Positions 7,216-43,394 of a DNA stretch of 43,394 nucleotides are shown here, piece after piece. The stretch is from a virus: IMG/VR virus record IMGVR_UViG_3300015263_000944, positions 1 through 43,394 of that record; one strand, 5' to 3'. Numbering within the stretch: the first letter of the stretch is position 1; each line of letters opens with the position of its first letter. A program made the position numbers and the translations under genes. Under the pieces are notes generated by a model. The model saw nothing but the letters and a program-made list of their open reading frames with translations. It was not told the origin of the DNA and made no database searches.

Positions 7216-7221
7216 AACGCA

Positions 7222-28294: not shown

Positions 28295-28331
28295 TGAAAA
28301 TCCTCCGGGTTTCGTTACTTGGTTATCGCCA

Positions 28332-28344: not shown

Positions 28345-28347
28345 GCT

Positions 28348-28653: not shown

Positions 28654-29228
28654 TCTCCGACTGTTCCTGTTACGACGAAGCGAGACAAAACAGGAACCAG
28701 TTCGGCCACCTGCTCTGGACCCAACTTCATCTTGGTTGTGAGGACAGTCCCTTCGGGATACTCAAAGGGCTGCCAACTCTTTCCGGGAATCATGATTTCT
28801 GGTTTTGGATCATCGGGGCCGACCAACAGTGTCTCTTCGTGGCTCTCGATTGAATAGCCACAACCATACAAGTCAACGGTTGTCAGCTTCTCGACCGAGC
28901 CACACTTGAGAAACGTCTCGAAGAGTTCAAGGATGATCGCCGCTTGCTCCTGATCCAAATGAACTCGTGTGTGAACGAGCACGCTGTGCCAGTGAGGGTT
29001 CTCTTTCTTCGCTTGGAACTCTTCGTGTGCTCGATGCCACTCGATCCACGCCTGTTGTTTCTTCGGCGAGACCTTGTTGGAACAGCGAGGATTGGCATCA
29101 TTGACACCGAACCATATTGCGGCGGCAGTAGCGAGACTTGAATCTTGGATGGAACATTTGTTGCCGTCGAGGTCAGGAAATTCACCAAGCCTGAATCCAC
29201 GACTCGTCTTGTCCATCTTCAAAGTCAT
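28650..29228 (-). CDS. hypothetical protein
   Basis: Track ORF 28650..29234 (TTG) trimmed to ATG 29228 with SD AGGAGA. Confidence 0.45.
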   Translation of the reverse strand: MTLKMDKTSRGFRLGEFPDLDGNKCSIQDSSLATAAAIWFGVNDANPRCSNKVSPKKQQAWIEWHRAHEEFQAKKENPHWHSVLVHTRVHLDQEQAAIILELFETFLKCGSVEKLTTVDLYGCGYSIESHEETLLVGPDDPKPEIMIPGKSWQPFEYPEGTVLTTKMKLGPEQVAELVPVLSRFVVTGTVGE

Positions 29229-29396
29229 CGCCAATCTCCTGTTTTGTATTGAAGACGCCGATGAATCACGGGGTTACATACCCGCCGTACCTTACCGTCC
29301 ACTCATTGAGCCCATGGTCTCGCAGAGTGCCGCTGCTCTTGTCGTGGGTACACTTATCGAGTTCAGGCCGAAGCCAGACTCATCGGCGTCACGACC

Positions 29397-29425
29397 ATTG
29401 TATGGCACGAAAACTTGGCTGTAAA
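29397..29425 (-). promoter_or_regulatory. sigma70-like promoter TTTACA-N17-TACAAT with about 160-nt leader
   Basis: Plus strand attgta 29397-29402 and tgtaaa 29420-29425. Confidence 0.45.
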
Positions 29426-29426
29426 G

Positions 29427-30140
29427 CTAATCTGCCAACTTGTTCGGAACCATTGGAGCAGTCATCCAGTTTTGAGAGGTCTGGACGTGGTTGGCTCGAA
29501 CGTATTTCGCACAATGGGTGCGAAATTGTTCATAGAGAAATCCCTCAGTGGCTCGTACAACATAGCCCTCTGCCTCACAAGGCAGGAAGTCACGGGGGAA
29601 CTCGGGGACCGGCACTTCGTGGGAATCTTCGGCCAGTGCAAAAGTTGGAAAGGTGCCATTGCACTCCAGACCCTCTACCCATCGCTCACGCACCGTCTTT
29701 TCGTCCCAAACTCCACGCCACAGCACAGGCACCGTTTGGAGGCCCAAGTCTTCGCAGATTGCTTCCACTTTGTCCCACGGCAGACAGAGATTGTCATTGT
29801 AGATGCCGTAAACGAAGAAGTACGAAGGAAGCTGGTCATAGAAGATAGAGTGGTAGGCGTACACGTTCTCGCCGCAGATGCGGAAGTTCTGCGGGATGCG
29901 GTAGGCGAATGTGGCAGCGAAGCTCTTCATCCATGATCGAGATGGATGGTGCTTGCTGTCAATTGAACGAGCGTGCGTGTGTCCATCGGGATACACGGTC
30001 GTACATTCCCCGTCGAGCTTCTCAGTCATCACGACTTCCCGACCATCAAATGCAGTGGTATCGCTCCACCACACATCGTCGGAAGAGTTCGACTGGCTCC
30101 AAGGGAGGTTCATCGTTCGTGGGTATTTGGTGCGTTCCAT
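29427..30140 (-). CDS. compact ATP-dependent RNA/DNA ligase-family nucleotidyltransferase (motif I KLDGE, motif IV EGYVVR)
   Basis: Track ORF, ATG. Confidence 0.5.
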   Translation of the reverse strand: MERTKYPRTMNLPWSQSNSSDDVWWSDTTAFDGREVVMTEKLDGECTTVYPDGHTHARSIDSKHHPSRSWMKSFAATFAYRIPQNFRICGENVYAYHSIFYDQLPSYFFVYGIYNDNLCLPWDKVEAICEDLGLQTVPVLWRGVWDEKTVRERWVEGLECNGTFPTFALAEDSHEVPVPEFPRDFLPCEAEGYVVRATEGFLYEQFRTHCAKYVRANHVQTSQNWMTAPMVPNKLAD

Positions 30141-30158
30141 TCCTACATGATAAGGAAA

Positions 30159-31001
30159 TCAAAACAACTGGTCAATCAGTTTTGTCAGGCTGGGATCTCG
30201 GAGTCGCACCTGATGAGGAAGAAGCCATTCATATTTTTCGGAAAAGTCCAAATCGAATTTGGATACATTGCGATGAACCTCTTCGATCAGGAAAGCAAAC
30301 GCCCACTTTGAGAAGACCTCGTTTTTCACCTCATAGAACCCCATGCTGTGAAATGTTTTCTCCCGCCGATGAGGTGCGCCCCACTTGATGGCGTGTTCGC
30401 AGTCATCCATCCAGCGAAACCACTCGGGATGTTCCTTTTGAATGGCGTTGGATGTGCTCTCGTTGCCAAGCCAGAAAGCATCACTATACCAGTGACAGAG
30501 ACTCCACAGATAGTTCCTGAAGTCCTCGTCTTTCATCCCCTTGATCGCATATTCTTGGTACATTCCAAAGTAATTGCGTGCCGCTTCTGATTCCTTGTCG
30601 AAATAGAACAGGCCATCATTCAGGTTCTTGACCACCAGATCGGTCGAACGATGAAAAGGCAGAGGGGACTTGGCCCAAAAGACATCTGTGTCTGAATAGA
30701 GGATGACCTTCTGTGGAATGGTTTGTACAAAGTTCCAAATGTCGATCTGCCGAGATGTGATCATTGAATGGCGATCCCTTGTCTTTCCCTCAAAGAAATA
30801 AGGCCAATTCACCACTTCAAAATTCAACAACTCTGGATAGTGACCCCACTTGCCTTTGTAAGTGTCTCGTTGAATCACATAAACCTTGGAATCACAGCCC
30901 GCCCCTCGAAGAGACGCAATGCACAGAACGGTTCCCTCTTCTTGGTTCCATGTGTGGTACACCACGGCTGTCTCCGGGGAATTGTATTCTACTTTCAGCA
31001 T
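30159..31001 (-). CDS. putative glycosyltransferase (DxD motif YSDTDVFW)
   Basis: Track ORF, ATG overlapping the upstream TGA. Confidence 0.45.
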   Translation of the reverse strand: MLKVEYNSPETAVVYHTWNQEEGTVLCIASLRGAGCDSKVYVIQRDTYKGKWGHYPELLNFEVVNWPYFFEGKTRDRHSMITSRQIDIWNFVQTIPQKVILYSDTDVFWAKSPLPFHRSTDLVVKNLNDGLFYFDKESEAARNYFGMYQEYAIKGMKDEDFRNYLWSLCHWYSDAFWLGNESTSNAIQKEHPEWFRWMDDCEHAIKWGAPHRREKTFHSMGFYEVKNEVFSKWAFAFLIEEVHRNVSKFDLDFSEKYEWLLPHQVRLRDPSLTKLIDQLF

Positions 31002-31690
31002 AGCATGATCCGTTTCGCCATTTGATCATCTTGTATCTTCTGATCGTGCCGTGTGTAGTATGAACAATCTCGCCGTGCATGAGCGAGATAGTACCGCTCT
31101 TCTTCGTCCAAATTGGCTGGGTCGTTGTACCACGGCACATGACGGCCCGTGTATGGCCTATCCAACCTAAGAGAGTCTGTGATCTTGTAGACTTGAGGCA
31201 CATTTCTGTACAACGCAAAAGTTGTATCGACGTTCACGTCCCAGTATTCTCCGAGCTTCTTTTGCCAACAGATCTTTTCTGATCCTTGAATGAAGTGGTA
31301 ACGATGAATGTCATGCTTCGGCAAGTCGTTGATTTCAAGACTGATGCCTACTTTGATTCGCTCGGGATGTTGTTTTAGACCCTGCTTCATTTTGCGAATC
31401 ACATCGAGGGGGACGCCAGACAAATCCAAATCACAATCGCTGAAGGCGAAGTAATTGGATGATGGGAAGCCGAGATGGAAGTTACGAGTGAAACAACTCC
31501 ATGGACCAATGTTGTTGGTCAGCCGGATCAGTTCAAAGGAGCGATCTCTTTCGAAGAACTCAAGCAGCGGCGGATAGGTAGAGGCATTGTCTATGACAAT
31601 GGGCTTGAGTTCGGGAATCTGTGCAAAATACTCCAGCATTCCCTTGAGCGTAGTCAGTCGATTATAGCTGACAATGAAGACTGGGATCAT
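30995..31690 (-). CDS. family 2 glycosyltransferase
   Basis: Track ORF. GT2 N-terminal signature IPVFIVSYNRLTTL ... PIVIDNAST. Confidence 0.55.
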   Translation of the reverse strand: MIPVFIVSYNRLTTLKGMLEYFAQIPELKPIVIDNASTYPPLLEFFERDRSFELIRLTNNIGPWSCFTRNFHLGFPSSNYFAFSDCDLDLSGVPLDVIRKMKQGLKQHPERIKVGISLEINDLPKHDIHRYHFIQGSEKICWQKKLGEYWDVNVDTTFALYRNVPQVYKITDSLRLDRPYTGRHVPWYNDPANLDEEERYYLAHARRDCSYYTRHDQKIQDDQMAKRIMLC

Positions 31691-32037
31691 TGAGGCAACC
31701 TGTTGAGCACATCGATTAAGCGAACCTTATCGCCTACCATTTCGTTATGTGCCCCACCAGATCGCTCAATTCGAGGAGTATAGATATCGATCTGTCCGTC
31801 AATCGCAGTTTGACCAGCCATCATGGCCTCAAAGACACGATGATAACCGTCCATCATAAAGAAAGCTCCTCTGGGATTGTCTAAACGACTGACAATGATG
31901 GGCTTACCGGCAGAATGAGACAGAAGCCCATTGTGAAGGTCGTTGATTGCCTCCTCCACTTTGGGCTTCCATCCGAACAATCTACTGATCGGAATCGAGA
32001 TTGTCTGTTCTGTGATTAACCACTCTGAAAAACGCAC
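31687..32037 (-). CDS. small ParB/Sulfiredoxin-like domain protein (DGYHR motif), GTG start
   Basis: Track ORF; MMDGYHRVFEAMMAG resembles the ParB/Srx DGxHR core. Confidence 0.35.
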   Translation of the reverse strand: MRFSEWLITEQTISIPISRLFGWKPKVEEAINDLHNGLLSHSAGKPIIVSRLDNPRGAFFMMDGYHRVFEAMMAGQTAIDGQIDIYTPRIERSGGAHNEMVGDKVRLIDVLNRLPQ

Positions 32038-32038
32038 G

Positions 32039-32338
32039 TTAGTCCTTTTTGATTTTGAACTTGGGCATTCGGCCCTGTGCCTGCAAGAACTGGTTCAGTC
32101 GGAATCGTCTGTAAATGTAGCAGAAGATAACGCCGCCGATGATGCTCCACAGGAACCCTGCACTAGAAAACGGACCACCCATGTTCATCAACCACTGAAT
32201 CGCACCACCCACGAATGAGCCTGCGATACCAATGCCAACAGTGGGCAGAAAACCAACTGGATCTTCACCGGGATGCAACGCCTTTGCGATCAATCCCACG
32301 ATCAGTCCAAAGAAAACCCATCCAAGAATCCAAAACAT
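32039..32338 (-). CDS. GlsB/YeaQ/YmgE-family transglycosylase-associated membrane protein
   Basis: Track ORF, ATG; three glycine-rich TM segments. Confidence 0.55.
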   Translation of the reverse strand: MFWILGWVFFGLIVGLIAKALHPGEDPVGFLPTVGIGIAGSFVGGAIQWLMNMGGPFSSAGFLWSIIGGVIFCYIYRRFRLNQFLQAQGRMPKFKIKKD

Positions 32339-32359
32339 ATCAACCTCCGAGGTACAAAA

Positions 32360-33085
32360 TTACTTGGCTTCTGTATGTATGCGTGGCACGATCATAGTTC
32401 TAGGATGCACTTCTGCCGTCTTCAACAACATGACCAGTGTGTCAGGGCTGATCCCTGTGCCATCACAAAATTCGCATCGGCTGAGAGGCCCTAAATCAAA
32501 GTCCAACCATCTGCCAGTGCCGCCGCATCGTTCGCATTTTTGAACCACACTTCTCCCAGACATTGTGGTCTTGAAATCCCATGCCCCCTGAAAATGCTCA
32601 ACTTTCATCACCTCTCTGGAGCCCGATGCTGGGTCCGCAGTAATGATCGTATCGCTGGTGTAGCCTATGACGACAACGTAGTGCCATGTGGTGTCACCAC
32701 TTCTTAATAGGACGATGGGTGGCCGATCTTGGCTGACAAAATACTTCAACCGTTCAAGATCACCACGCAACATCTTGGCATCTATCCCAAAATGTTTGAG
32801 AGCAATAGGGAGGTACTCAGGAGAAGTCATCCCAATGGGCTCGCCGTGATATTCCAACCACTCAGTTTTTGTCTGCTTTTTCACCTCGTCCAGCGTGACC
32901 TCTTTCCCGTATCGCTTGAGCAACATGGTGACGCTCGTGGGTCCACAGGTGATGCCATCCGGTTGTTCGATGTATTGAAATCCGCCAACCTCATAAGACT
33001 CTGGGTGGGAATACTGCCAGTTGATTCCCCAGATAAAGGCCGCAACAGTAGTGATGATGAGTGTGACGAGCAAGATCTTTTTCAT
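32360..33085 (-). CDS. secreted papain-like cysteine peptidase, C39-like (peptidase_C39_2-type)
   Basis: Track ORF, ATG; N-terminal signal peptide; catalytic Cys in GITCGPTSV and His in WHYVVVIGY; C-terminal CxxC pairs. Confidence 0.5.
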   Translation of the reverse strand: MKKILLVTLIITTVAAFIWGINWQYSHPESYEVGGFQYIEQPDGITCGPTSVTMLLKRYGKEVTLDEVKKQTKTEWLEYHGEPIGMTSPEYLPIALKHFGIDAKMLRGDLERLKYFVSQDRPPIVLLRSGDTTWHYVVVIGYTSDTIITADPASGSREVMKVEHFQGAWDFKTTMSGRSVVQKCERCGGTGRWLDFDLGPLSRCEFCDGTGISPDTLVMLLKTAEVHPRTMIVPRIHTEAK

Positions 33086-33098
33086 ACAGTATCTATGA

Positions 33099-33129
33099 GA
33101 AAAGGCCCGGTTGTTTACCGGGCCTTTTC
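33099..33129. terminator. bidirectional intrinsic terminator gaaaaggcccgg-ttgttta-ccgggccttttc
   Basis: Perfect GC-rich stem flanked by A-run and T-run. Confidence 0.6.
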
Positions 33130-33154
33130 CTGTTGATCTTCAGTTGAAAGCGGA

Positions 33155-33508
33155 TCATTCCGCTGGGGTGTCGTCCCCGCCACTTTCATCCGTGGCTTCT
33201 TCCTCGTCGTCCTCTTCCTCGTTGCCTTGGTCGAGCGGCTTGCCGTTCGCCATGTTGTTCAACTGGTTGAGGAGCTTGCCGAGTTGCTTGTCGCACTTTT
33301 TCTTCTCGCCAGTGAACCGTCGCTCGGCAGCGTTCATCTGGTCTTGCAGTTCAAGACACTTGACGATGAGTTCTTTGGCTCGTTTCTTCCGGCCCTCGGC
33401 TTGTTCCTTGGAGACTTCTTCCAAAGCCTCCTTCAGAACATCGATGCTCTGCTTGTGTGGGCTGAGCAGTTTGTCGAGCCGGTCGGTGTTGCTGGTTTGG
33501 ACTCCCAT
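33155..33508 (-). CDS. hypothetical coiled-coil protein with acidic tail
   Basis: Track ORF, ATG. Confidence 0.45.
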   Translation of the reverse strand: MGVQTSNTDRLDKLLSPHKQSIDVLKEALEEVSKEQAEGRKKRAKELIVKCLELQDQMNAAERRFTGEKKKCDKQLGKLLNQLNNMANGKPLDQGNEEEDDEEEATDESGGDDTPAE

Positions 33509-33544
33509 TTCGGACTCCCTCCCTTTCTACGGTTGCGGGTTTGG

Positions 33545-34036
33545 TTAATCGAACACTGCGGAAAGCTGTTCGAGGACTTCTTCACTTTGGTCGTTGATGC
33601 GTTCGGCCTCATCGGCGGTGAGGTGTAGACCTTTCACCATCCGCTCCATGTCTTCGATGCCCTCCAAGATGATGTCGCATTGAACATCAACGGTATCGAC
33701 TTGACGTTTTGCCTCTTCCAGCAATGGCTCGATAGCGGAACGTCGGACGGAGTTATAACCACTGGGCCACGTTTCAGGCGTCAACCTGCCAACATCATAC
33801 CAGATGGCTTTGGAGCACAATTCTTGGACGATTGGCTTGCGGTTGTCAGGAAAGAGATAGCTGATCTCTCGTCGCAGGGAGACAACGAAGAGATCAACTC
33901 TTTCTGCCCGATTTGATTTCAGATGCTCTCGCTTGGAGATGCGGTTGACATGACGAATAGCCTTCCCGAGAGCCACAGCAAGCTGTTTCTTTTTGTCTTG
34001 CGGCAACTCTTCGATAGTGCTTGCGTTAAACATCAC
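33545..34036 (-). CDS. hypothetical protein
   Basis: Track ORF, ATG. Confidence 0.45.
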   Translation of the reverse strand: MMFNASTIEELPQDKKKQLAVALGKAIRHVNRISKREHLKSNRAERVDLFVVSLRREISYLFPDNRKPIVQELCSKAIWYDVGRLTPETWPSGYNSVRRSAIEPLLEEAKRQVDTVDVQCDIILEGIEDMERMVKGLHLTADEAERINDQSEEVLEQLSAVFD

Positions 34037-34052
34037 GCCTCTCCTTGAGACC

Positions 34053-35228
34053 TCAGTGATTTATGTGATCGGCAATGCCATTCAACATCATCCCGATCAT
34101 AGACCAGTCAACCTCGTCCGTCAAGAGAACGTCCCTTAATGTTTTCACCTCTACATAGGTTCGTTCTGTGTCCTCTATAACACCAAAAGTCTGTTGCTTC
34201 GCAGCAAGTTCCTCTGCTTGACGAATCTCCTCTTCTGTAAGCTCAACCGTGAAAAGCACAGCCTTGTGAGTCGAAAGCGTCGATGCTAATTGCCTTGCAC
34301 ACACCTGATTGAATCGACTGGCTGGTATTTCAAGTCCTGTCTCTTCTTTGAGTTCATCGGCGGCGATCTCCAACGCATTTTCTTTGTTCTTGAAAGAAGA
34401 ACCGCCCGGAAGCTCATGCACAAATCCTGTGCTGTTTCGAGCAGGAGAGCGAAACTCCTTGATCAGTACAATTTTTGTAGCCAAAAGATCGTTGGAGTCA
34501 AGATCCAGCCAGTAAGGCAAGATGGTGGAGATGTCCGAGCGGGTGAAGATGTACTCATTTTCCTTGTACCGCTGTTCGGAATCAATCCAGACTTTCACCC
34601 ACAAAATGTAGGAGAACAGGAAGTTGATCTTGGGGATCACAAACTTCCACAACACCTTGGCCTCATCAAGCCGATTGCCTGCGGCTTCTTGTTCCTTAAG
34701 CCATGCTTGGAACATCGGCGTATTGTAGATGTCTAGCGGCACATAGCGAGAGCCACCTTCACGATCTGCGCCCTTTAGTTCCGCAACTTGGCTTGCTAGT
34801 TGTTGTATGGAGTTGCACGGCTCACGGCCAGTACAATCTTTGTAAAGCCAGTCGAGATAGCGGGTCTTGGGTGCATCGTCTGGCCGACCATAGAAGAGCT
34901 TCCCATCGTTCACATATCGACCGAATTCAACATTCGTAGTGAAAGCAGGCATCGAGTCCAGATTTCGTGGCACCCACGCCACGATTCGGTCGGAAATTTC
35001 AAGACCCAGCTTCTCCCATTCAGTTTGAGAGTTATAGTCCTTCGACCATTCCCCGTCCCGAGCTTCGGGCACAAAGACATGACCATCGAAACCAGCTTCA
35101 GCTAGGGCCTCGATCATCTGGGGACGCCACGAAGCAACTGGGTTGTCTCGGCGTGGCGTAGGACCAACAAGAAAGACGGACTTGTTGATCGTATTGGGAA
35201 TCGCTTCCCTTGCGTAAATGATGTGCAT
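34053..35228 (-). CDS. fusion protein: N-terminal nucleoside 2-deoxyribosyltransferase-like Rossmann domain + C-terminal Nudix-like domain
   Basis: Track ORF, ATG with SD AAGGAGG. N-term VFLVGPT...HVFVPEARDGEW; C-term variant Nudix box E-x7-DELKEETGL. Confidence 0.5.
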   Translation of the reverse strand: MHIIYAREAIPNTINKSVFLVGPTPRRDNPVASWRPQMIEALAEAGFDGHVFVPEARDGEWSKDYNSQTEWEKLGLEISDRIVAWVPRNLDSMPAFTTNVEFGRYVNDGKLFYGRPDDAPKTRYLDWLYKDCTGREPCNSIQQLASQVAELKGADREGGSRYVPLDIYNTPMFQAWLKEQEAAGNRLDEAKVLWKFVIPKINFLFSYILWVKVWIDSEQRYKENEYIFTRSDISTILPYWLDLDSNDLLATKIVLIKEFRSPARNSTGFVHELPGGSSFKNKENALEIAADELKEETGLEIPASRFNQVCARQLASTLSTHKAVLFTVELTEEEIRQAEELAAKQQTFGVIEDTERTYVEVKTLRDVLLTDEVDWSMIGMMLNGIADHINH

Positions 35229-35304
35229 TTGAACCTCCTTGTTCAGACGGAATTAAAGGAGATTCAACAAATCAACGCAAGAGCATCTTTGACAAAACTT
35301 CAGA

Positions 35305-35907
35305 TTATCTCTGAAGTTGCGCCGTCAGCCCTGAGCGAGTGTACTTCATCATCGTGAAGACATCACTCCCGAAAGCCTCACTGATTTCCTCGCCACGGGT
35401 AAACATAGCATCCATCAAATCGCTGGCCTTCTTCCAGTATTTGACGGCGTACTCAGGATCACTCGACAACCAATCGCAGACGTTGCAGAAACGGTCGGCG
35501 CACTTGATGACCAGAGCATCCACGCTCTTCTGCATGAATGATCGCATGTAATCCCGCTTCTGAATGTGGTCGGGTCGCTCATCACGAGGGTCAGGAATGA
35601 ACGTCAACTCGCTCACGATTGAAGCGGCATCTTCGCCGATCACAGCGATGAGTTCCTCATCTGTGACACCACAATCCTCTTTGGTGTCATGGCAGATGGT
35701 GGCCTTCCATACCTTCAGATTCCGCAATTCCCACTCCGTACCAATGACTGTGAGAACAGACATGGGATGGACAATGAAAGGCAGGCCGCTTCCCTTGCGG
35801 AACTGTCCTCGATGTCGATCTGTGGCGAAATCAATGGCTGCGAGAATCTCGGATTGAGCGTCTTCTGTAAAGACATCCGGTTCAGGCGGCGGGATCACTT
35901 TGGTCAT
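35305..35907 (-). CDS. HD-domain small alarmone hydrolase (SpoT/Mesh1-like (p)ppGpp hydrolase family)
   Basis: Track ORF, ATG with SD GGAGGAGG. Motifs HRGQFRKGSGLPFIVHP and ICHDTKED. Confidence 0.6.
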   Translation of the reverse strand: MTKVIPPPEPDVFTEDAQSEILAAIDFATDRHRGQFRKGSGLPFIVHPMSVLTVIGTEWELRNLKVWKATICHDTKEDCGVTDEELIAVIGEDAASIVSELTFIPDPRDERPDHIQKRDYMRSFMQKSVDALVIKCADRFCNVCDWLSSDPEYAVKYWKKASDLMDAMFTRGEEISEAFGSDVFTMMKYTRSGLTAQLQR

Positions 35908-36013
35908 ATTTTACCTCCTCCGTGCAGGTAATTGGCTTCCAATATCATCCGTAAGGCCCGCTACAGTTTAGACCAAACGGGAGGAATGTCAATCCTGCAC
36001 CATAAATAACGTG

Positions 36014-36745
36014 ATGACAAACTTCGTAATAATTGCAGAACTCCGTTCGGGATACCAACTTCTCGCCACACTGCTGAATTCAAATCCAGAGGTGTTGTGC
36101 TTGGGAGAGATTTATGGCCGCAAGAGATCTGTAAGAATACAGAGCCTTTTCGGCAATGAAGTTCCAGTTCTCGAAGATAGCGACTCGTCTGTGAATTACT
36201 TCAAGACGGTCCTTGCTCCATTGGCAGAGCGAACGAACCGGAAAGCTTTCGGTTTCAAACTCAATTATGTGGACTGCATGGAAAACGACAACTGGCGAGA
36301 GTTGTGGGATTTCATTGCGTCAGAAAGATGGCACGTCATTCATCTCCGACGACTCAATGTGCTGGATCGAGCCATCTCAGAGAAACTCGCCATTGAACAA
36401 TGGCGATGGAACAACGAGCAATATGACACACAGATCAGGATCACGTTTGATGAACTAGAGTTCTACTACCAACGTGCCCTTCGATGGCAAAAGTGGGCCA
36501 ACGATCACTTCAAAAACTCACCCATCTGCCATGTGACCTATGAAGAACTCACAAGGCAAAGATACCAAACCTGTCAGAAAGTGCAAGAGTTCTTGGGGGT
36601 TCAACCAAGAGAATTGACCTCGTTCATGCAAAAGCAGCGTGTGGGCGGGCAAGCTACATTCGTCAAAAACTACCGCCGACTCTACAGTCAATGTGTGAGC
36701 CACCCCATCTACAAGCACTGGCTAACCGACATCCCAGTCATCTAG
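36014..36745 (+). CDS. sulfotransferase (Stf0-like PAPS-binding loop RSGYQLLATLL)
   Basis: Track ORF 36011 (GTG)/36014 (ATG); weak SD. Confidence 0.5.
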   Translation: MTNFVIIAELRSGYQLLATLLNSNPEVLCLGEIYGRKRSVRIQSLFGNEVPVLEDSDSSVNYFKTVLAPLAERTNRKAFGFKLNYVDCMENDNWRELWDFIASERWHVIHLRRLNVLDRAISEKLAIEQWRWNNEQYDTQIRITFDELEFYYQRALRWQKWANDHFKNSPICHVTYEELTRQRYQTCQKVQEFLGVQPRELTSFMQKQRVGGQATFVKNYRRLYSQCVSHPIYKHWLTDIPVI

Positions 36746-37856
36746 GGAACGAAATCTGGACCAGTTCTTGGATTTCGGATGCGGCCTTCTTGTCCACCAA
36801 TGGGGCGACATCAAATGGCTTGATGTACTGCAAATCCATCTTGAGTTCTTTGGCTCGCTCTTGAGCTTTCAGTGAGTTCTCCTTGAAGATGCCGACGTTG
36901 TTTTGGTTGAGGATCAAGTCCCCCAACTGAACCACCCCTGCTTGATCGTAGGTGGGAAGCATCCAGATTGAGTCCACCCCGATGTCGGCTGCCATCTCAA
37001 CCATTGCTGTCATCTCATGTACATTCAGCATATTGATGTTGTTGTAGATGGTGGTTCGATGATGCCACCCCTTCCCAATCTCATCTCGTATCTTGATCCA
37101 TCGCCTGAGATTCGCAACTACCTTATCCAACGCATCCAAGCGGCGAATCTTTTTGTGCGTAGCTGGCGTGGCGGCATCTAAGGACCACGAAATTTCCGAC
37201 CAATCTACATTGTCAAAGAATCTCCGACACACCTTCTCTGTGAGACAAATGCCGTTGGTGTTGGTGGTGAATCGAATGTGATGTTTCTCAAAATCAAACC
37301 GCACCTTCTCGAAGATACGGAACACAGCATTTTGCCAGAATGGTTCTGCAATCCCAAGAACAGAAAACTGGGTCAGATAAGGCATGAGTGGCCGGGCCTT
37401 CTCGCACAGCATATCGGTCAAATCCTCCTGTTGTGGCTTCACAAAATTGCGGATACACATGATGCACGCAGGGTTTTCCTCACTGGGCTCATACCCTCCA
37501 ATGTTGCAGTGCCGATCTGGAAGACAAATCTCAAGCCATGTGGGGTAAAATGAATTCGCATATGTGGGGGCCGGTCCAGACTTCTTTGGTTTCACCTTGT
37601 AAGGACAAGCTGTACCTTGACCACATACAGGATGCAATTGCCCCGCCTCTGTTTGTTTGCGAATTTCATTCGCTAATGGACCTCTCCAAAGATCAAGAAC
37701 TTCTGTGGTAGCATCCAGCCTTCCGAGTTGAACCATCTGGTAACAACACATCGATACATCGCCCCAACTATTGAGAATCACTTTGTTGTGAGGGTTGGAG
37801 CAGAATGTATTGGTTTTGGTTCCAAATCGTCCTATATCTTGAGCCAGTTTCAGCAT
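36738..37856 (-). CDS. non-canonical radical-SAM-like enzyme, paralog A (FC-x17-CC N-terminal motif; HCNIGG-x13-ACIMC; GIAEPFW; TTNTNG)
   Basis: Track ORF 36738..37970; I choose ATG 37856 because it gives the same spacing to the FC motif as the paralogs and removes the 110-nt overlap (37907 or 37934 also possible). Confidence 0.45.
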   Translation of the reverse strand: MLKLAQDIGRFGTKTNTFCSNPHNKVILNSWGDVSMCCYQMVQLGRLDATTEVLDLWRGPLANEIRKQTEAGQLHPVCGQGTACPYKVKPKKSGPAPTYANSFYPTWLEICLPDRHCNIGGYEPSEENPACIMCIRNFVKPQQEDLTDMLCEKARPLMPYLTQFSVLGIAEPFWQNAVFRIFEKVRFDFEKHHIRFTTNTNGICLTEKVCRRFFDNVDWSEISWSLDAATPATHKKIRRLDALDKVVANLRRWIKIRDEIGKGWHHRTTIYNNINMLNVHEMTAMVEMAADIGVDSIWMLPTYDQAGVVQLGDLILNQNNVGIFKENSLKAQERAKELKMDLQYIKPFDVAPLVDKKAASEIQELVQISFPR

Positions 37857-37860
37857 ATCA

Positions 37861-39459
37861 TCAAATGAACATGGGGCGTTGACCAGTAATCGAGACAAGC
37901 TCGACATCTTTACCAGCCATATCCTTCTGGGCATCCTCCAGAGTGTTACAAATCGGTCTCTTCTTGCCATTCAGTGAAGTGTTAATCAAACATTCCACAC
38001 CACTTTCTTCACCATAAGCTACCAACAACTGATGCAGCCATGGATCGTCTTGCTTGTTTACTACTTGGGGACGAGCAGTCCCATCTTTATGAACAATGGC
38101 AGGCAGCAACTCTTTTGCCTCTTCCGTACAATGCACTCGATATTGCATGTATTTTCCACGGGGGCCAATGAAGAAGCGGTCAAATTGCTCTGCTGTCACA
38201 ATCGGAGCAAGAGGTCGGTAGAACTCTCTCTTTTTAATCTGTTGCGAAACTCTTCTGAGGTTTTTTCTATTCTTCGCAGAAGCAAGGATCGAACGAAAGC
38301 CTAGTGCCCGTGGACCAGCTTCGGCTTTGCCACGCAACAGACCGATTACCTGACCGTTCGATAGTCGTGATGCGATTTGTTCCGGCTGCTGTGGGCCGAG
38401 ACGAGGCAGAGGCGTTTGCAAGGTGTGCAAAGAAGGTGACGAGAGTTTGGGCCACCAACCATTGAGGTGATAGAAAGCCCATGCTGCGGCACCCAGAGCA
38501 AGTCCGCTATCATCTGTTGGGGGACCGAACACCACGTCTTTCACCATGCCGTGAATGCGTGTGTTGAGTTCGAGGGCCAGTGTTGTGCCACCACCAATCA
38601 CCACACCTCGACCCATTCCAAATTTTGTAATGTTGTCTTCAATCCCCGGCCAGATGATATCGTTGGTGTACCACTTGTAAAAGTGGGCAACGTAATCCAT
38701 GTTCTCTCGGGTAAGTTGCCACGAGTAATTAGGAATTGTTGGATATTGAGTGGTGTGCGTGTATGGGTCCATGCTGAACTCCACCGTCTTTCGCACAAAC
38801 TCCCAGCCATTCCATTTTCGACAGTTGGTGACATATCCAGCCAGCCCCATAGCCTTTCCAGCACTGTTGTATCCCAACAGACTCGTGAGGGGGATGCTGG
38901 TCGGGATGACAGGTGCTCGCTCAAATCTCCGTACTCCTGATGGTCCAATCTCACCCACCAACGAAGAATGAGGAACACCATGAGCGTCTAATCCGACGCC
39001 ATCGTATGCCATAAAGAACCGTTCTTGGTCATCTGGCCGAAAACACCAAGCAGAAACTATGTGAGCGAGATGATGGTTGATCACCATGTCTGGGTTGCGA
39101 CCCAGCGTCCAATAGATGAAGTTTTCTCGTTCCTTTGGTGCGTAGGAGCGGATCAGGAAAGGATCGTATTTTGTTGATTCTGTGCTGATGTTACCGATAC
39201 TATGCCACAGTTCCTCTTTGGTGGCGTGCTCTCCACCAATTGCCACCAAAACACAGAAATCATCATCCCGCAGCGGCCCGAGATCGGGAAAGTATTCTGC
39301 CAGACAGCTTAATGCAGGCTTCTCGGCATTGTAATCATATCCGCCGTGGTTCTTTTTCCTTTTGTAGCGTTCGCATTGAGCGTAGAACTCAACCTCGCCG
39401 TCCTCATTGATAATAACGACTGCCGAATCATGTCCAAAATGTACGCCGATGAATCTCAT
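37861..39459 (-). CDS. carbamoyltransferase (NodU/CmcH family)
   Basis: Track ORF, ATG. N-terminal MRFIGVHFGHDSAVVIINEDGEV and HHLAHIVSAW hallmark motifs. Confidence 0.65.
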   Translation of the reverse strand: MRFIGVHFGHDSAVVIINEDGEVEFYAQCERYKRKKNHGGYDYNAEKPALSCLAEYFPDLGPLRDDDFCVLVAIGGEHATKEELWHSIGNISTESTKYDPFLIRSYAPKERENFIYWTLGRNPDMVINHHLAHIVSAWCFRPDDQERFFMAYDGVGLDAHGVPHSSLVGEIGPSGVRRFERAPVIPTSIPLTSLLGYNSAGKAMGLAGYVTNCRKWNGWEFVRKTVEFSMDPYTHTTQYPTIPNYSWQLTRENMDYVAHFYKWYTNDIIWPGIEDNITKFGMGRGVVIGGGTTLALELNTRIHGMVKDVVFGPPTDDSGLALGAAAWAFYHLNGWWPKLSSPSLHTLQTPLPRLGPQQPEQIASRLSNGQVIGLLRGKAEAGPRALGFRSILASAKNRKNLRRVSQQIKKREFYRPLAPIVTAEQFDRFFIGPRGKYMQYRVHCTEEAKELLPAIVHKDGTARPQVVNKQDDPWLHQLLVAYGEESGVECLINTSLNGKKRPICNTLEDAQKDMAGKDVELVSITGQRPMFI

Positions 39460-39482
39460 GTCGTTATCATAGTATATACCGT

Positions 39483-40508
39483 ATGATCAATTCGTGGAGA
39501 ATCGAACGAACCGCCTTTTGCAACTATCCTTTTCAGAGGGTCAAAATAGACTCCGAGGGATACTGCAACTTCTGCTGTTCTCACGCTCGTCGCTGTCTGG
39601 GGAACGTCTTAGAGAAAGATCTCTGGGACATTTGGAACTGTCCAAAAGCCAAGAAAATTAGGGAAGACACGTTGCGAGGCGTAATGCACCCGACATGTGC
39701 CCAAGAATCATGTCCTCTCTTCCATATTAGAGACAATCTACCTTCTAAGACGTTTACCCAAAAAGAGTTGCCATCTCAATTTGAGATTGATCTACCAAAT
39801 ACCCACTGCAACATCGGCGGCACGAAGCCTACCGCAGACACAGCTTGCATCATGTGCGAGAGGGCTGCCCCCAATTTCGTCCCACAAATTGATCGGCTGC
39901 CAGAAGTTTGTGAGGCCCTGAAACCTTATGTGAAATACATCGACACGATCCATGTGCAAGGAGTGGCCGAACCATTCTGGCAAGGCCGCATCTTCGATTG
40001 TCTGGAGGCTCTGGGCGTCGATAAATACAAAGATCAAATCGTGGTCAGCACAACCACGAATGGCACCGTGATCGATGCAAAGAAGATGGAAAAATGGTTG
40101 GCATATCCGAAAAGTTGCGCCACCTTCTCGTTGGATGCCGCAACACCAGAGACGTACCAAAAGATCCGTCGCCTCAACGCCTATCACGCTGTGATCAAAA
40201 CCATGCTGAGGCTTAACCAACAGCGAACCGGACAACAGAAGATGTACATCCACAACAACATCAATCTGTTGAACATCGCCGAGGTCTCACAGATGGTTGA
40301 AACGGCAGCAATGGTGGGCGCAGATTCTATCAGCTTTCAGCCAACATCATGTTTGCCGGGATTAGAGGTGTCGGCTTCCAACCTCAAACAATTCAATGAA
40401 GCCGAAACACAAATTTTGGAATCAGCAGATAGGCTAGGTGTGACTGTGGAGTTTTGGAGAAAGTTGACGCTGGACATTGAGCCCACCCTTGTTCAACTTA
40501 AAGTGTGA
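39483..40508 (+). CDS. non-canonical radical-SAM-like enzyme, paralog B
   Basis: Track ORF, ATG. FCNYPFQRVKIDSEGYCNFCC; HCNIGGTKPTADTACIMCER; GVAEPFW; TTTNGT; C-terminal IHNNINLLNIAEV. Confidence 0.5.
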   Translation: MINSWRIERTAFCNYPFQRVKIDSEGYCNFCCSHARRCLGNVLEKDLWDIWNCPKAKKIREDTLRGVMHPTCAQESCPLFHIRDNLPSKTFTQKELPSQFEIDLPNTHCNIGGTKPTADTACIMCERAAPNFVPQIDRLPEVCEALKPYVKYIDTIHVQGVAEPFWQGRIFDCLEALGVDKYKDQIVVSTTTNGTVIDAKKMEKWLAYPKSCATFSLDAATPETYQKIRRLNAYHAVIKTMLRLNQQRTGQQKMYIHNNINLLNIAEVSQMVETAAMVGADSISFQPTSCLPGLEVSASNLKQFNEAETQILESADRLGVTVEFWRKLTLDIEPTLVQLKV

Positions 40509-41559
40509 GTTGAACAAGGTGCTCTGTCATGCCCAGATCGAGCGGGCGGATGAAGTTGTAAGGCACATTCAATCGCTTGCATTCTGCAATAATATCTTGT
40601 TGGGCCTTTTTGAAGAGCCCACAGTTGTCCTCATTGACCAAGATCTTGTAATTGAACCCATCTGTAGGATTGAACTCGACATATTCCACATTGGCCTTGG
40701 CTGCGATCTGCACCATACCTACAACTTCTTGAACATTCATGATGTTGATGTTGTTGTGGATTCGTAAGAACTGGCGACTTCTTACACGCTCTTTCGAGAA
40801 AGCGTAAAGAGTTTCGATCACTTTGTCGAAACAGTCGAAGATGCGGATTCTCTTGAAGGTTTCCGGCGTGGCGGCATCGATTGAGAAGTTTGTGATGCTA
40901 TGAGGGGCACGTCGCAAATACTCCTCACGCACTCGCTTCTTTAAGAGTGTGCCATTCGTTGTGACACTAAGTGTGATTTGATCGGCATACTCATCGAAAC
41001 CTAAAACGTCCATCACATCAAACAACAGAAAACCATCTTCCCGTGTTTGCAGGAACGGCTCAGCAATACCTTGGATGTGAATCTGTTTGAGATTGGGAAC
41101 AATATGCTTGATTCGTCCCAACACTTCAAACAGATGATCTTTCTCTGGCCTGAAGAATGGAGCGGATCGCTCGCACATAATGCAAGCTGGCGACTTCTCT
41201 GGATCAGGGTTCTTTCCGCCCACATTGCAGTGAGTGTTGGGGAGGTCGATTTCTAAGAAGTTGGGATACTCGTTGTAGACAATCCGCTTCTTGGGATAGG
41301 GTTTCTCCATCGACTTGTAAGGACAGCCCGGAGTACAACATTTGGAATGGAGTTGCCCATTGCGAGTCGATTCTCGGATCGCCTCGGCCACTTCTCCAAA
41401 CCACACCTCATCGAATGTGTTCTCCAGCACATTGCCCACATAGGCTTCCGCCTCGGGCTTCAGAGGGTCGGGCCGCATGAAGCAACACATGGCAAGGTTG
41501 CCCTCGCATGTGATTCTGGCCCGGTTGAACGGCATGTCACAAAAAGCTTCTATCCACAT
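40498..41559 (-). CDS. non-canonical radical-SAM-like enzyme, paralog C
   Basis: Track ORF, ATG. HCNVGGKNPDPEKSPACIMCER; GIAEPFL; TTNGT. Confidence 0.5.
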   Translation of the reverse strand: MWIEAFCDMPFNRARITCEGNLAMCCFMRPDPLKPEAEAYVGNVLENTFDEVWFGEVAEAIRESTRNGQLHSKCCTPGCPYKSMEKPYPKKRIVYNEYPNFLEIDLPNTHCNVGGKNPDPEKSPACIMCERSAPFFRPEKDHLFEVLGRIKHIVPNLKQIHIQGIAEPFLQTREDGFLLFDVMDVLGFDEYADQITLSVTTNGTLLKKRVREEYLRRAPHSITNFSIDAATPETFKRIRIFDCFDKVIETLYAFSKERVRSRQFLRIHNNINIMNVQEVVGMVQIAAKANVEYVEFNPTDGFNYKILVNEDNCGLFKKAQQDIIAECKRLNVPYNFIRPLDLGMTEHLVQLTL

Positions 41560-41984
41560 GCACTATTAGAGTTCGACTGCGGTAAAAAGAATCCGCAATT
41601 AGTGCATTGTTCACCTTCGACACGATGCTTGCATTTGGGACAATACGGCTCGAAGGGGTTGATGTTGCTGCGGATCAAACTCCACTCCTCGTCGGTGGGT
41701 TCCCGCCAGCAATTTGTGCTCACATCCACATCATATTCACCTTCCCAATCCCGTGAGTAATGGAAGATGCCTTCCCAGACCCAAATGCCTTCATCGGGGG
41801 AGTTGTTGTCGGTGATCCCCAATTCATCAGCACTGGCTCCAAGGGCGTCGATTTCATGTTCAAGAATTTCGCCGTAGAACCAGATGATGAAGCCTCCAGA
41901 CTTGGAGAATCCGATCAGTGCTCGTTGAACCGGGTCCGCTGGAAAACTTGCTTCCTGACTAATCTGGCTCAGATCGAATTTCAT
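41550..41984 (-). CDS. hypothetical acidic protein with C-terminal zinc ribbon (CPKC...CTNC)
   Basis: Track ORF 41550..42017 (TTG) trimmed to ATG 41984, which overlaps the upstream TGA as ATGA; TAG stop. Confidence 0.4.
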   Translation of the reverse strand: MKFDLSQISQEASFPADPVQRALIGFSKSGGFIIWFYGEILEHEIDALGASADELGITDNNSPDEGIWVWEGIFHYSRDWEGEYDVDVSTNCWREPTDEEWSLIRSNINPFEPYCPKCKHRVEGEQCTNCGFFLPQSNSNSACG

Positions 41985-43012
41985 AACAGAATCTCTGAGA
42001 GGTGCTTCATGTCCCAACTCATATTGTCGAAGACAGGTGTATCCGTGTAACTGCTGAGTTCTTTGATCCCCAGTGGTGAAGAAGAAATCTTCCCAGAAAC
42101 AGCATCCGGTTTCAAGCCGAACTGGCTTTGGAGCACTTGTAGGCCACCCACCGCTCCGAACGCATCGCTGGCAGCAAAGATCAGACGGTGGATGCGTTTC
42201 TGAACCGTTGGATTCGACAACAGCATGGCCGTCTCACGCTGGATGATTCCATCTGCTAACTCCACAACCCAGAAGTTGCGTGGGTTGTTGGCATACTTCA
42301 GGTCAGTCTCGTTAAAGATTCGCAACAACTCCGACTCGTCCATCATGTATGTTGATGGATACCCGAAGTATGTGAAATCGTTGATGTAAGATGCGCCACA
42401 ATCCTGCATTCGCAGGATATCTTTCAAGCTGGCTGTCCCTGTGATCTTCGAGGCCCGGACATTGTGTCCCATTGACGAAAGAGCCCAACAGCAGGCTGCC
42501 GCCGTATAACTCTTGCCAGCATTCATCGATGTCCCCACCACCAAGATCAGTTTGGCACGAGAATCTTTCTCATCGGCATCAGTCGCCTTGGGTTTGATGA
42601 TGGGATAACGACGTGTGTTGAGCACCTCGCCATCGTCGTCGATAACGTAACCCAGCACCTTGATCTTAGTGGGTTCTTGGATCACCGAATTCTTATGGAG
42701 CATCGTGGCAATCACGCCAGAGCGTGCCACGAGGTCAATCTCATGGGGGCAATCATCTGGGATGATAGCCTCGTAATAGTCTGGGGCATAGCGGTTGCCG
42801 AAAACGAACAGCCCTTTTGTGCCCTCGTTCACGGAGTGGATTCGGCCCGACTTGTTCTCCAGATCGGTGTGTTGTCCCTTGCGGACGACTTTGCCATAAA
42901 CAACATCACCGATCTCAGGTTTTTTGTCCCGAAACTCATACGACTTGATGAGTTTCTTTCCGAGACAATAGGCCGCACTGGTGAAGATATAGCCGGGGGA
43001 AATCCGTTTCAT
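41981..43012 (-). CDS. DUF1611-like protein with CobQ/MinD-type P-loop (GTSMNAGKS)
   Basis: Track ORF 41981..43081 trimmed to ATG 43012 (MKRISPGYIF) overlapping the upstream TGA. Confidence 0.45.
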   Translation of the reverse strand: MKRISPGYIFTSAAYCLGKKLIKSYEFRDKKPEIGDVVYGKVVRKGQHTDLENKSGRIHSVNEGTKGLFVFGNRYAPDYYEAIIPDDCPHEIDLVARSGVIATMLHKNSVIQEPTKIKVLGYVIDDDGEVLNTRRYPIIKPKATDADEKDSRAKLILVVGTSMNAGKSYTAAACCWALSSMGHNVRASKITGTASLKDILRMQDCGASYINDFTYFGYPSTYMMDESELLRIFNETDLKYANNPRNFWVVELADGIIQRETAMLLSNPTVQKRIHRLIFAASDAFGAVGGLQVLQSQFGLKPDAVSGKISSSPLGIKELSSYTDTPVFDNMSWDMKHLSEILL

Positions 43013-43383
43013 TCCTCGTCCTTTACGAAGTAAGAACAGTAAGGGCAGTAGGCCCAGTGAGGTTCGAGTTCTTTCTGGCAATTCTTACAAACCGGATCTT
43101 CGTCATCGTGCCAACGATCTTTCTTGTGCCATCGAATTTGCAACAACACAATGACAACTGGCACGATGGTCGCCATCTGTCTGAAAATCCAGATGATGTC
43201 ACCGGTGCCATTGTGCCAATCGATAGATGCTTTCGTCAATAGGGCGAAGTATCCAACAAGTAAGAACGCATAAGTCCAACCGGAGATATCCCGCACTTCA
43301 CGATGTTTATGAATCTTCCAGACTTGCAACCAATAGCTGGCCGCAAGCACGCCAATGGCGATCCATGTGATTGTTTGAATCAT
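43009..43383 (-). CDS. small membrane protein (LAB_N-like domain, tentative) with C-terminal zinc ribbon
   Basis: Track ORF, ATG with SD AGGAAGG. Confidence 0.45.
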   Translation of the reverse strand: MIQTITWIAIGVLAASYWLQVWKIHKHREVRDISGWTYAFLLVGYFALLTKASIDWHNGTGDIIWIFRQMATIVPVVIVLLQIRWHKKDRWHDDEDPVCKNCQKELEPHWAYCPYCSYFVKDEE

Positions 43384-43394
43384 TCGTCCTTCCT

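Follow-up and report, generated by a model that had tools for sequence, protein, structure and literature searches.

The DNA analysed here (hereafter, the window) is the 43,394-nucleotide stretch of the IMG/VR virus record IMGVR_UViG_3300015263_000944, and the region of interest is the span between positions 29427 and 43383, which encodes three paralogous radical S-adenosylmethionine (radical-SAM) enzymes, designated rSAM-A, rSAM-B and rSAM-C, together with a carbamoyltransferase and a sulfotransferase. Contigs from metagenomes that carry close homologues of the genes of the span range in length from 177 kb to 693 kb and include IMG/VR viral genomes (177 kb, 235 kb and 459 kb); the element is therefore a huge (jumbo or mega) phage. 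The span consists of 18 closely spaced open reading frames (ORFs), 16 of them on the minus strand, with a widest intergenic gap of 103 bp (35908-36010). Since a scan for promoters and terminators gave counts at chance level, operon boundaries cannot be drawn. A preliminary description had presented these 14 kb as a single, co-functioning accessory cluster. That unity is not borne out, since several of the genes belong to the conserved backbone of the lineage, and the span is better divided into three parts: (i) the conserved backbone (rSAM-C, rSAM-A, an HD_4 phosphohydrolase, two proteins without family match, a YeaQ-type protein and an RNA ligase); (ii) a hypervariable cassette (approximately 36.0-40.5 kb); and (iii) a second insertion site between the YeaQ and RNA ligase genes (30.2-32.0 kb).

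Family assignments were judged by Pfam gathering scores (given below as cutoffs), and NCBIfam, PHROGs, PADLOC and the Protein Data Bank (PDB) were also searched. A total of 68 loci (designated by L numbers) were collected, their ORFs were called and compared with the proteins of the window. For presence counts, 28 related loci of at least 10 kb were used. Finally, 14 non-redundant loci were chosen for having an rSAM-C orthologue with an identity of 60% or more and downstream sequence of 4 kb or more.

The radical-SAM genes and their variable cassette

The radical-SAM trio of the preliminary description was confirmed, as all three paralogues match the SPASM family PF13186 with 26.9-37.2 bits (cutoff 21.5). 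They correspond to: (i) rSAM-A (36738-37856, minus strand; 26.9 bits), with the cysteine motif HC-x13-CxxC; (ii) rSAM-B (39483-40508, plus strand; 36.1 bits), with HC-x12-CxxC; and (iii) rSAM-C (40498-41559, minus strand), a radical-SAM protein with an N-terminal twitch/SPASM domain which represents the conserved anchor of the region. The start of rSAM-A is most likely at 37856 (372 amino acids, as in the Joint Genome Institute (JGI) gene call) rather than at 37970 and, in consequence, its seeming overlap with the carbamoyltransferase gene disappears.

The paralogues share with the SPASM/twitch enzymes (anSME, BtrN, SkfB, MoaA-like proteins; NF033640) a partial (beta/alpha)6 TIM-barrel core, here with the motifs 'GIAEPF' (GGEP-like), 'TTNGT' and 'SIDA', and a cysteine-rich auxiliary domain that matches PF13186. 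But while in that subfamily the auxiliary domain is expected at the C-terminus, in rSAM-A, rSAM-B and rSAM-C it lies at the N-terminus, with the radical-SAM core behind it. In an alignment of 25 sequences, the residues C7, G20, C25, C26, C74 and C79 are invariant, and so is C111-x14-C126-x2-C129. The N-terminal signature C7-x12-G20-x4-C25 (CX12GX4C) fits the SPASM/twitch pattern CX9-15GX4C; the full seven-cysteine SPASM motif (CX2CX5CX3C, two auxiliary clusters) is absent, as only C74-x4-C79 follows. The five conserved N-terminal cysteines are hence twitch-like, with room for one auxiliary cluster. The motif H-C-x12-14-C-x2-C is present in 43 of 45 paralogues from 16 loci: compared with the canonical CX3CX2C, the three cysteines are kept in the non-canonical spacing CX12-14CX2C. 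No RiPP recognition element (RRE; RiPP, ribosomally synthesised and post-translationally modified peptide) or PqqD-like domain was detected in the paralogues by Pfam or NCBIfam, their N-terminus being the Fe-S domain.

A further difference from the known SPASM/twitch enzymes is the number of paralogues per phage genome, which ranges from two to four or five. The 45 paralogues sort into five old orthologue groups, where those of rSAM-C and rSAM-A are near-universal and those of rSAM-B and two others are facultative; rSAM-C and rSAM-A are anciently diverged paralogues. Against the NCBIfam model NF033640 (N_Twi_rSAM; cutoff 170), the three proteins score 50.1, 72.7 (rSAM-B) and 59.6 bits. This model is the top NCBIfam match of rSAM-B and rSAM-C, and for rSAM-A TIGR04317 scores slightly higher. 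The subfamily is a rare one: when 1.84 billion representative proteins were searched exhaustively with HMMER, 92 matched at E≤1e-30 and 186 at E≤1e-10, and rSAM-C found no match by tblastn in 50,697 phage records nor among PDB sequences at E≤1. Within 185,579 species genomes, the subfamily appears only on five short contigs of metagenome-assembled genomes (MAGs), four assigned to Bdellovibrionota and one to Chthonomonas. The Bdellovibrionota occurrences could hint at the origin of the genes or at the host range. The contigs binned as Bdellovibrionota (L009, L011, L012 and L013) carry several relatives with long N-terminal extensions (475-632 amino acids). A viperin-like identity was considered and rejected, given that the pVip matches are partial and limited to the core (27.1 bits for rSAM-A, 18.4 bits for rSAM-B), with none for rSAM-C.

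Gene order around these enzymes is conserved. The first part of the backbone comprises GT2 (glycosyltransferase family 2), GT2, a small protein, GT2, an M50 peptidase, ClpX, a GGACT protein, several uncharacterised genes, the PQ-loop and 155-amino-acid proteins (both facultative) and rSAM-C; the second part continues with the variable cassette, rSAM-A, HD_4, the two proteins without family match, a facultative C39 peptidase, YeaQ, the RNA ligase and, farther on, a PARP protein. No other protein of the region is as conserved as rSAM-C, with 62-78% identity (55-66% for ClpX). In the set of 14 loci, orthologues of rSAM-A (50-58% identity) are present in 13 and of HD_4 in 12, nearly always beside rSAM-A; those of the carbamoyltransferase were found in eight, of rSAM-B in seven, and of the sulfotransferase and the DxD-motif protein described below in one each (a second DxD orthologue, in L002, falls under the coverage filter). 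The grouping of the core genes exceeds chance.

The composition of the cassette changes from phage to phage. In the window, rSAM-B and the carbamoyltransferase lie between rSAM-C and rSAM-A, and the sulfotransferase lies just past rSAM-A. Elsewhere, the slot holds: (i) rSAM-B alone (L041) or with a carbamoyltransferase (L017, L018), accompanied in L005 by a Methyltransf_23 protein (1.7e-6); (ii) the same methyltransferase alone (L027, L029); (iii) a sulfotransferase alone (L014/L035); (iv) a protein of 265-268 amino acids in which a GDS-type motif is combined with a marginal GDSL match (SGNH-like), either alone (L036) or with a carbamoyltransferase (L004); (v) additional radical-SAM paralogues together with the DxD protein and either one or two carbamoyltransferases (L002, L003); or (vi) a radical-SAM paralogue, a carbamoyltransferase, a Glyco_trans_1_2-like protein (1.5e-5), rSAM-B, a GT2-like protein and a Methyltransf_24 protein (1.6e-16) (L031, L047). 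In L043, there is no cassette. Nearly all the cassette genes with a recognisable domain thus encode group-transfer enzymes or further radical-SAM paralogues. The exception is found in L003 (IMGVR_UViG_3300023179_000009, 11057-12057), where a 257-amino-acid ORF is inserted on the opposite strand right behind rSAM-C, and 62 C-terminal residues of rSAM-C are found duplicated (73% identical) after it; a homing endonuclease has probably been inserted here into the gene that is best conserved in the module.

The carbamoyltransferase (37861-39459, minus strand) was correctly recognised in the preliminary description as a NodU/CmcH-type enzyme: its scores for PF16861 (167.4 bits, cutoff 27) and PF02543 (32.6 bits, cutoff 24) are above the cutoffs, and its PDB sequence matches are NovN (2.6e-34), GdmN and TobZ. 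Like the members of the NodU/CmcH/TobZ/NovN family, it is a two-domain O-carbamoyltransferase (Kae1-like N-terminal and YrdC-like C-terminal domains) with an HxxxH metal motif, 'HHLAH', which aligns with that of NovN. Its score against the NodU equivalog NF041651 is 120.6 bits (cutoff 1000), and it matches phrog_1601 with 1.6e-71. The structurally characterised members of the TobZ/NodU/NovN/GdmN family among these PDB matches O-carbamoylate hydroxyls which, for TobZ, NodU and NovN, are sugar hydroxyls.

The sulfotransferase (36011-36745, plus strand), initially described as Stf0-like, is retained as a sulfotransferase of the 3'-phosphoadenosine-5'-phosphosulfate (PAPS)-dependent type (PF13469, 35.8 bits, cutoff 27), but the Stf0 model PF09037 itself is matched below its cutoff (17.7 against 22 bits). 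An N-terminal 'RSG' loop within 'ELRSGYQLL' and an 'R..LDRAIS' motif within 'RRLNVLDRAIS' can be read in the sequence, and are presumably the 5'-phosphosulfate-binding (5'-PSB) and 3'-phosphate-binding (3'-PB) motifs of PAPS-dependent sulfotransferases. No match was obtained by tblastn in the 50,697 phage records; the cassette of L014/L035 contains a homologue with 43% identity.

The remaining genes of the span

Two glycosyltransferases named in the preliminary description lie in the second insertion site. The DxD-motif protein (30159-31001, minus strand) matches PF03407 (cutoff 22) marginally, with 14.1 bits (E=0.046), and its L003 homologue with 15.4 bits (E=0.019). It is 24-25% identical to proteins of L002 and L003 which adjoin the carbamoyltransferase within the cassette, and the motifs 'D-x-D-x-F' and 'N-x-G-x-F-Y-F' are invariant in an alignment of the three sequences. 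A homologue search returned only the protein itself, its profile retrieved nothing usable from the PDB, an hhalign comparison with GT8 aligned the DxD stretch alone (probability 0.5%, non-significant), and a single-sequence AlphaFold2 model was unusable (mean predicted local distance difference test score, 34). The DxD protein is a probable nucleotide-sugar transferase. The GT2-like protein of GT-A type (30995-31690, minus strand) aligns with PF00535 over 134 residues, including a 'DCD' motif, and yet its score (19.5 bits, E=0.001) is below the cutoff of 23.3; no homologue was found in the 28 related loci, nor by tblastn in the 50,697 phage records. Next to it, a 116-amino-acid protein (31687-32037, minus strand) had been described as ParB/Srx-like, a claim for which no support was found, with no match in Pfam (E≤5), NCBIfam, PHROGs, PADLOC or PDB (E≤10). 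This protein has no homologue in the 28 loci either.

Several other genes of the span belong to the backbone. The RNA ligase (29427-30140, minus strand; PF09414, 107 bits), with orthologues of 51-61% identity in five loci, probably stands outside the pathway. The small membrane protein of the GlsB/YeaQ/YmgE family (32039-32338, minus strand) was rightly named in the preliminary description (PF04226, 28.3 bits, above the gathering score) and has counterparts with 47-74% identity in 11 of the 28 loci. Two conserved proteins of 117 and 163 amino acids without family match (33155-34036, minus strand) have homologues in L004, L005, L018 and L041. The HD_4 (RelA/SpoT-type) phosphohydrolase (35305-35907, minus strand) is assigned by PF13328 (33.2 bits) and phrog_990 (5e-26). 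The HD_4 protein and the RNA ligase had gone unmentioned in the preliminary description, as had a fusion of a nucleoside 2-deoxyribosyltransferase (NDT)-like domain with a Nudix box (34053-35228, minus strand; PF15891, 37.5 bits). The Nudix signature 'ELKEETGLE' is readable in this fusion, whose sole partial homologue is a 155-amino-acid ORF in L014; its NDT part has no homologue in the 28 loci.

The C39-like cysteine peptidase of the preliminary description (32360-33085, minus strand; 241 amino acids) is confirmed by PF03412 (57.2 bits, cutoff 22) and PF13529 (50 bits), has one N-terminal hydrophobic segment, and shows the cysteine of 'TCGP' and the histidine of 'WHYVVV'. Counterparts were found in only three of the 28 loci. 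It stands alone, with neither fusion to an ABC exporter nor an ABC transporter or small ORF nearby. Its architecture is unusual for C39 peptidases, as an N-terminal membrane anchor is combined with two C-terminal DnaJ-type CxxCxGxG zinc-finger motifs ('CERCGGTG' and 'CEFCDGTG').

Upstream of rSAM-C lie three further genes. A 155-amino-acid protein with a C-terminal zinc ribbon (41550-42017, minus strand), for which there is only a marginal DZR match, has homologues of 29-40% identity immediately upstream of rSAM-C in L005, L017, L018, L027 and L041. The SIMIBI-type P-loop protein (41981-43081, minus strand), previously called DUF1611-type, keeps its P-loop, but PF07755 matches only residues 167-210, that is, the P-loop stretch, at 22.7 bits (cutoff 25). 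It has no homologue in the 28 loci, a PDB sequence search gave nothing usable, and the one tblastn match in the 50,697 phage records (35%, an unannotated faecal phage record) is uninformative. Lastly, the membrane protein described as LAB_N-like (43009-43383, minus strand) is described here as a PQ-loop (semiSWEET/LAB_N-like) protein with a zinc ribbon, although its PF04193 score (20.8 bits) is below the cutoff of 22; orthologues with 47-73% identity lie close to rSAM-C in five loci.

Possible products of the module

The preliminary description had proposed a tailoring pathway for a glycan, a nucleoside-like metabolite or a DNA hypermodification. The pathway itself gains support, as the radical-SAM genes and the carbamoyltransferase recur together in related genomes and the same slot holds, in other phages, sulfotransferase, methyltransferase and glycosyltransferase-like genes. 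A slot with such swappable genes looks like a tailoring pathway with exchangeable decoration steps. Co-occurrence does not extend to the GT2-like, 116-amino-acid, NDT-Nudix and P-loop genes, which lack homologues in the 28 loci (the partial one of the fusion apart). The choice among the three products cannot be made from sequence. In general terms, the readings rank as follows: (i) a decorated glycan; (ii) DNA or nucleotide hypermodification; (iii) a mosaic of unrelated genes; (iv) a nucleoside metabolite; and (v), the weakest, a modified peptide.

Tentatively, and as the first choice, the module is proposed to build a sugar-containing molecule, either a glycan or a glycoconjugate, in the cytoplasm and to O-decorate it in a lineage-specific manner; the product would differ from phage to phage. 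None of the proposed pathway enzymes has a transmembrane segment, hence the placement of the chemistry in the cytoplasm. There, (i) the radical-SAM enzymes would act on a sugar or sugar-nucleotide scaffold by C-H-based redox or rearrangement chemistry; (ii) the exchangeable group-transfer enzymes would then cap hydroxyls with carbamoyl (from carbamoyl phosphate and ATP), sulfate (from PAPS) or methyl groups; and (iii) glycosyltransferases would attach or extend the sugar, the candidates being the three conserved GT2 genes and, in this genome, also the GT2-like and DxD proteins. The resulting decorated glycan or glycoconjugate would be lineage-specific and exposed or targeted by defences, as would be the case for a glycan of the virion or of the host envelope; such a location is suggested by the turnover of the cassette between phages. 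Three points are inferences here: the action of the cassette enzymes on what the radical-SAM enzymes produce, the sugar nature of the substrate, and selection on an exposed molecule as the source of the variability.

A sugar product is supported by the sugar hydroxyls that TobZ, NodU and NovN carbamoylate, by the decorations found across the cassettes (carbamoyl, sulfate, methyl and possibly acyl, plus glycosyltransferase-like proteins), which form a classic carbohydrate-tailoring set, and by the three conserved GT2 genes located approximately 8-10 kb past the end of the window. Phage carbamoyltransferases on contigs of unmodified DNA are likewise reported to adjoin glycosyltransferases (MetaGPA, PMC8670742). 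Moreover, independent distant members of the radical-SAM subfamily (35-43% identity) adjoin glycosyltransferases in four unrelated contexts, in two of them also with a sulfotransferase: a GT2 gene with stop/start overlap in L051; a GT1 and then a sulfotransferase gene in L061; GT32-type, GT8 and sulfotransferase genes in L071; and a GT8 and a B12-radical-SAM gene in L012, a MAG contig.

Several points weigh against this proposal. The substrate is assigned by inference. The 49 kb that were inspected showed no genes of nucleotide-sugar synthesis (nucleotidyltransferase, dehydratase, aminotransferase). The backbone GT2 genes are parted from the module by ClpX, the M50 peptidase and several uncharacterised genes, so that their link to it is positional only, and the GT2-like and DxD assignments within the window are sub-threshold. 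The carbamoyltransferase is missing from six of the 14 related loci, and the sulfotransferase is present in only one. Finally, a second distant group of radical-SAM relatives (34-38% identity), on the AT-rich viral contigs L015, L016 and L066, has a DNA-metabolism context.

This last group leads to the second-ranked explanation, unlikely but still the strongest of the alternatives, namely that the module makes a hypermodified base, perhaps with a decorated base-linked sugar, as a protection against restriction and CRISPR, with an arms race driving the turnover of the cassette. A phage carbamoyltransferase of the same family converts 5-hydroxymethylcytosine (5hmC) into 5-carbamoyloxymethylcytosine, on DNA as well as on dNTPs (PMC8670742), radical-SAM enzymes are reported to take part in thymidine hypermodification (PMC8989533), and phage GT-A and GT-B enzymes place glycans on DNA (bioRxiv 10.1101/2023.12.21.572611). 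On the AT-rich contigs, the distant radical-SAM gene belongs to a row formed by PolB, a 239-amino-acid protein, a pyridoxal phosphate (PLP) enzyme, a CxxCxxCC protein, a shikimate-kinase-like P-loop kinase, the radical-SAM gene and a 406-amino-acid protein with a DNA-methylase match. This row, located at 4677-12228 in L016 (IMGVR_UViG_3300032138_000524, 131.8 kb) and conserved in L015, L066, L053 and L059, may be regarded as a candidate DNA-hypermodification cluster. In the window, the HD_4, NDT-Nudix and RNA ligase genes, all of them nucleotide-handling, are found nearby. However, the Pfam matches in the window and the 6 kb beyond it include no thymidylate-synthase-type hydroxymethylase (PF00303), 5mYOX/TET protein or C5-methyltransferase, and no dCMP deaminase, MazG-type or DpdA/TGT gene either; it was on precisely this kind of co-occurrence that the MetaGPA association of carbamoyltransferases with modification rested (PMC8670742). 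The 21-kb loci of L004 and L005 likewise lack all of these genes. The absence of rSAM-C matches in the phage records also speaks against a hypermodification, and sulfated or carbamoylated DNA sugars are not known. A more specific proposal, that huge phages harbour a new class of nucleic-acid hypermodification, such as a sugar or side chain on DNA bases that radical-SAM enzymes have remodelled and that bears carbamoyl or sulfate, is rather improbable; if it were true, the cassette would act as a diversifying 'modification code' that evades host nucleases.

In third place, and with a correspondingly low probability, the rSAM-C/rSAM-A pair may have a role of its own, and two intervals (from rSAM-C to rSAM-A, and from YeaQ to the RNA ligase) would be recombination hotspots that merely collect unrelated accessory genes; carbamoylation, sulfation and glycosyl transfer would then have no common product. 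The four genes of the window without homologues in the related loci fit this picture, as do the frequent location of cassette genes on the opposite strand, the ORF of L003 with its duplicated rSAM-C tail (a configuration typical of homing endonucleases), the slot of L041 with rSAM-B only and the empty slot of L043. Nevertheless, the content of the cassettes is strongly non-random (radical-SAM paralogues of a rare subfamily and group-transfer enzymes, with little else recognisable), the DxD protein stands beside the carbamoyltransferase in two loci, and a sulfotransferase also accompanies distant members of the radical-SAM family in L061 and L071.

It is distinctly improbable that the product is a small molecule, i.e. 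a modified nucleoside or nucleotide that shuts down or manipulates the host in the manner of a peptidyl-nucleoside antibiotic or a chain terminator. The pathways for blasticidin, polyoxin and albomycin do combine radical-SAM enzymes with carbamoyl- and methyltransferases and NDT-family hydrolases, and here the HD_4 phosphohydrolase is nearly always adjacent, with the NDT-like/Nudix protein close by. But the viperin/pVip matches stay within the generic core and rSAM-C has none, the NDT-Nudix gene is confined to this genome, genes of the aminotransferase, ATP-grasp or non-ribosomal peptide synthetase type were not seen, and the only candidate for export is the weakly supported PQ-loop protein.

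Least probable of all is a RiPP-like modification, in which the radical-SAM enzymes would introduce cross-links or epimers into a protein of the phage or the host, with the C39 peptidase cutting off a leader peptide: the peptidase, the small conserved uncharacterised proteins nearby and the general affinity of SPASM/twitch enzymes for peptides favour it, but the small-ORF search found no free-standing small ORF, with gaps of at most 103 bp leaving no room for the precursor peptide that the preliminary description had already failed to spot, no RRE/PqqD-like domain was found, the peptidase is rare among the loci and not fused to an ABC transporter, and carbamoyl-, sulfo- and glycosyltransferases are atypical of RiPP clusters.

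Related systems, source DNA and the rest of the window

A parallel to the proposed sugar decoration is the tailoring of Nod factors, in which NodU, NodH and NodS add carbamoyl, sulfate and methyl groups, respectively, to an oligosaccharide made by a GT2 enzyme. Taken together, the cassettes show this trio of decorations alongside GT2 genes; however, NodA/NodB-type genes are absent here, the radical-SAM enzymes have no Nod counterpart, and the setting is a phage. Regarding phages, both glycan/tailoring islands and carbamoyltransferases are already known. The sole relatives of the carbamoyltransferase in isolated phages are the 'Nol-like carbamoyltransferase' genes (phrog_1601) of cyanophages and pelagiphages (146 records, mostly Synechococcus and Prochlorococcus myoviruses), but the identity is only approximately 25-28% over approximately 75% of the protein, and those phages lack a radical-SAM homologue. 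The 5hmC carbamoyltransferase pathway (MetaGPA, PMC8670742) is phage-encoded and relies on the same enzyme family, while its neighbours (dCMP hydroxymethylase, MazG-like protein, dCMP deaminase) are absent from the window and its flanks.

Glycan loci of phages and giant viruses, such as those for mycobacteriophage virion glycosylation (Freeman et al. 2023, as related in PMC12619734) and the DNA-glycan clusters (bioRxiv 10.1101/2023.12.21.572611), resemble the module in having soluble phage GT-A-type transferases and tailoring enzymes in variable islands. Yet, in these accounts, none is reported with radical-SAM, carbamoyl- or sulfotransferase genes, and the 5mYOX, C5-methyltransferase or ThyS neighbours that define the DNA-glycan clusters are missing here. 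Thymidine hypermodification clusters (PMC5889632, PMC8989533) are also mosaic and variable and can include a radical-SAM gene; by contrast, the module has no 5-hydroxymethyldeoxyuridine (5-hmdU) kinase, aGPT-Pplase or PLP enzyme. The 'Moraphage' lineage (PMC12619734) was considered as possible kin, but its genomes reach at most 307 kb, radical-SAM and carbamoyl genes are not mentioned for it, and no link was drawn. A literature search on huge phages with radical-SAM enzymes or carbamoyltransferases found nothing relevant.

An N-terminal-twitch radical-SAM pair that flanks an exchangeable tailoring cassette in huge phages was not found in the searchable literature, and there is a real chance that the module hides new chemistry. 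Huge phages (200-700 kb) hold many genes of obscure purpose; the present module is among the best conserved in its lineage and is built from a rare radical-SAM subfamily without a characterised member or a counterpart in cultured phages. The combination of a fixed radical-SAM pair with swappable decoration enzymes is a natural experiment that may lead to new radical-SAM chemistry and to a glycan, metabolite or DNA modification of phage origin not described before. In the case of a product displayed on virions or DNA, the cassette would mark arms-race diversification among giant phages. Its enzymes could also become tools for carbamoylating or sulfating sugars or nucleic acids.

Concerning the source DNA, positions 27861-43394 of the window agree with the JGI contig 3300022562 Ga0247387_10000286 (100,747 bp) without a single mismatch in 15,534 bases. 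The window as a whole corresponds to two joined JGI contigs of one sample, Ga0247387_10009791 (1-17220) and Ga0247387_10000286 (17221-43394). Since the DxD protein has a further record on a contig of 238,888 bp, there is a longer assembly of the same phage. No near-identical DNA from isolated phages was found among the 50,697 phage records.

The remainder of the window codes for an ArdC-like anti-restriction protein, AAA ATPases, a sigma factor, a PAPS-reductase-like/ParB-like pair and a WGR-PARP protein. The ArdC-like protein (1972-3093, minus strand) consists of ArdcN and MPTase-PolyVal domains (phrog_7245, 4.6e-49). The PAPS-reductase-like protein (phrog_424, 1.6e-23) adjoins the ParB-like one (phrog_3264), at 5720-6910 and 7282-8703 (minus strand); as far as tested, the pair has no relation to the sulfotransferase, and it resembles IbrA/IbrB. 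The protein with WGR and PARP (poly-ADP-ribose-polymerase-like) domains (26630-28294, minus strand; 554 amino acids) is 45-60% identical to proteins of five related huge-phage loci. Finally, the G+C content is 0.492 in 29427-43383 and 0.536 in 1-29426, with all cassette genes between 0.47 and 0.51.

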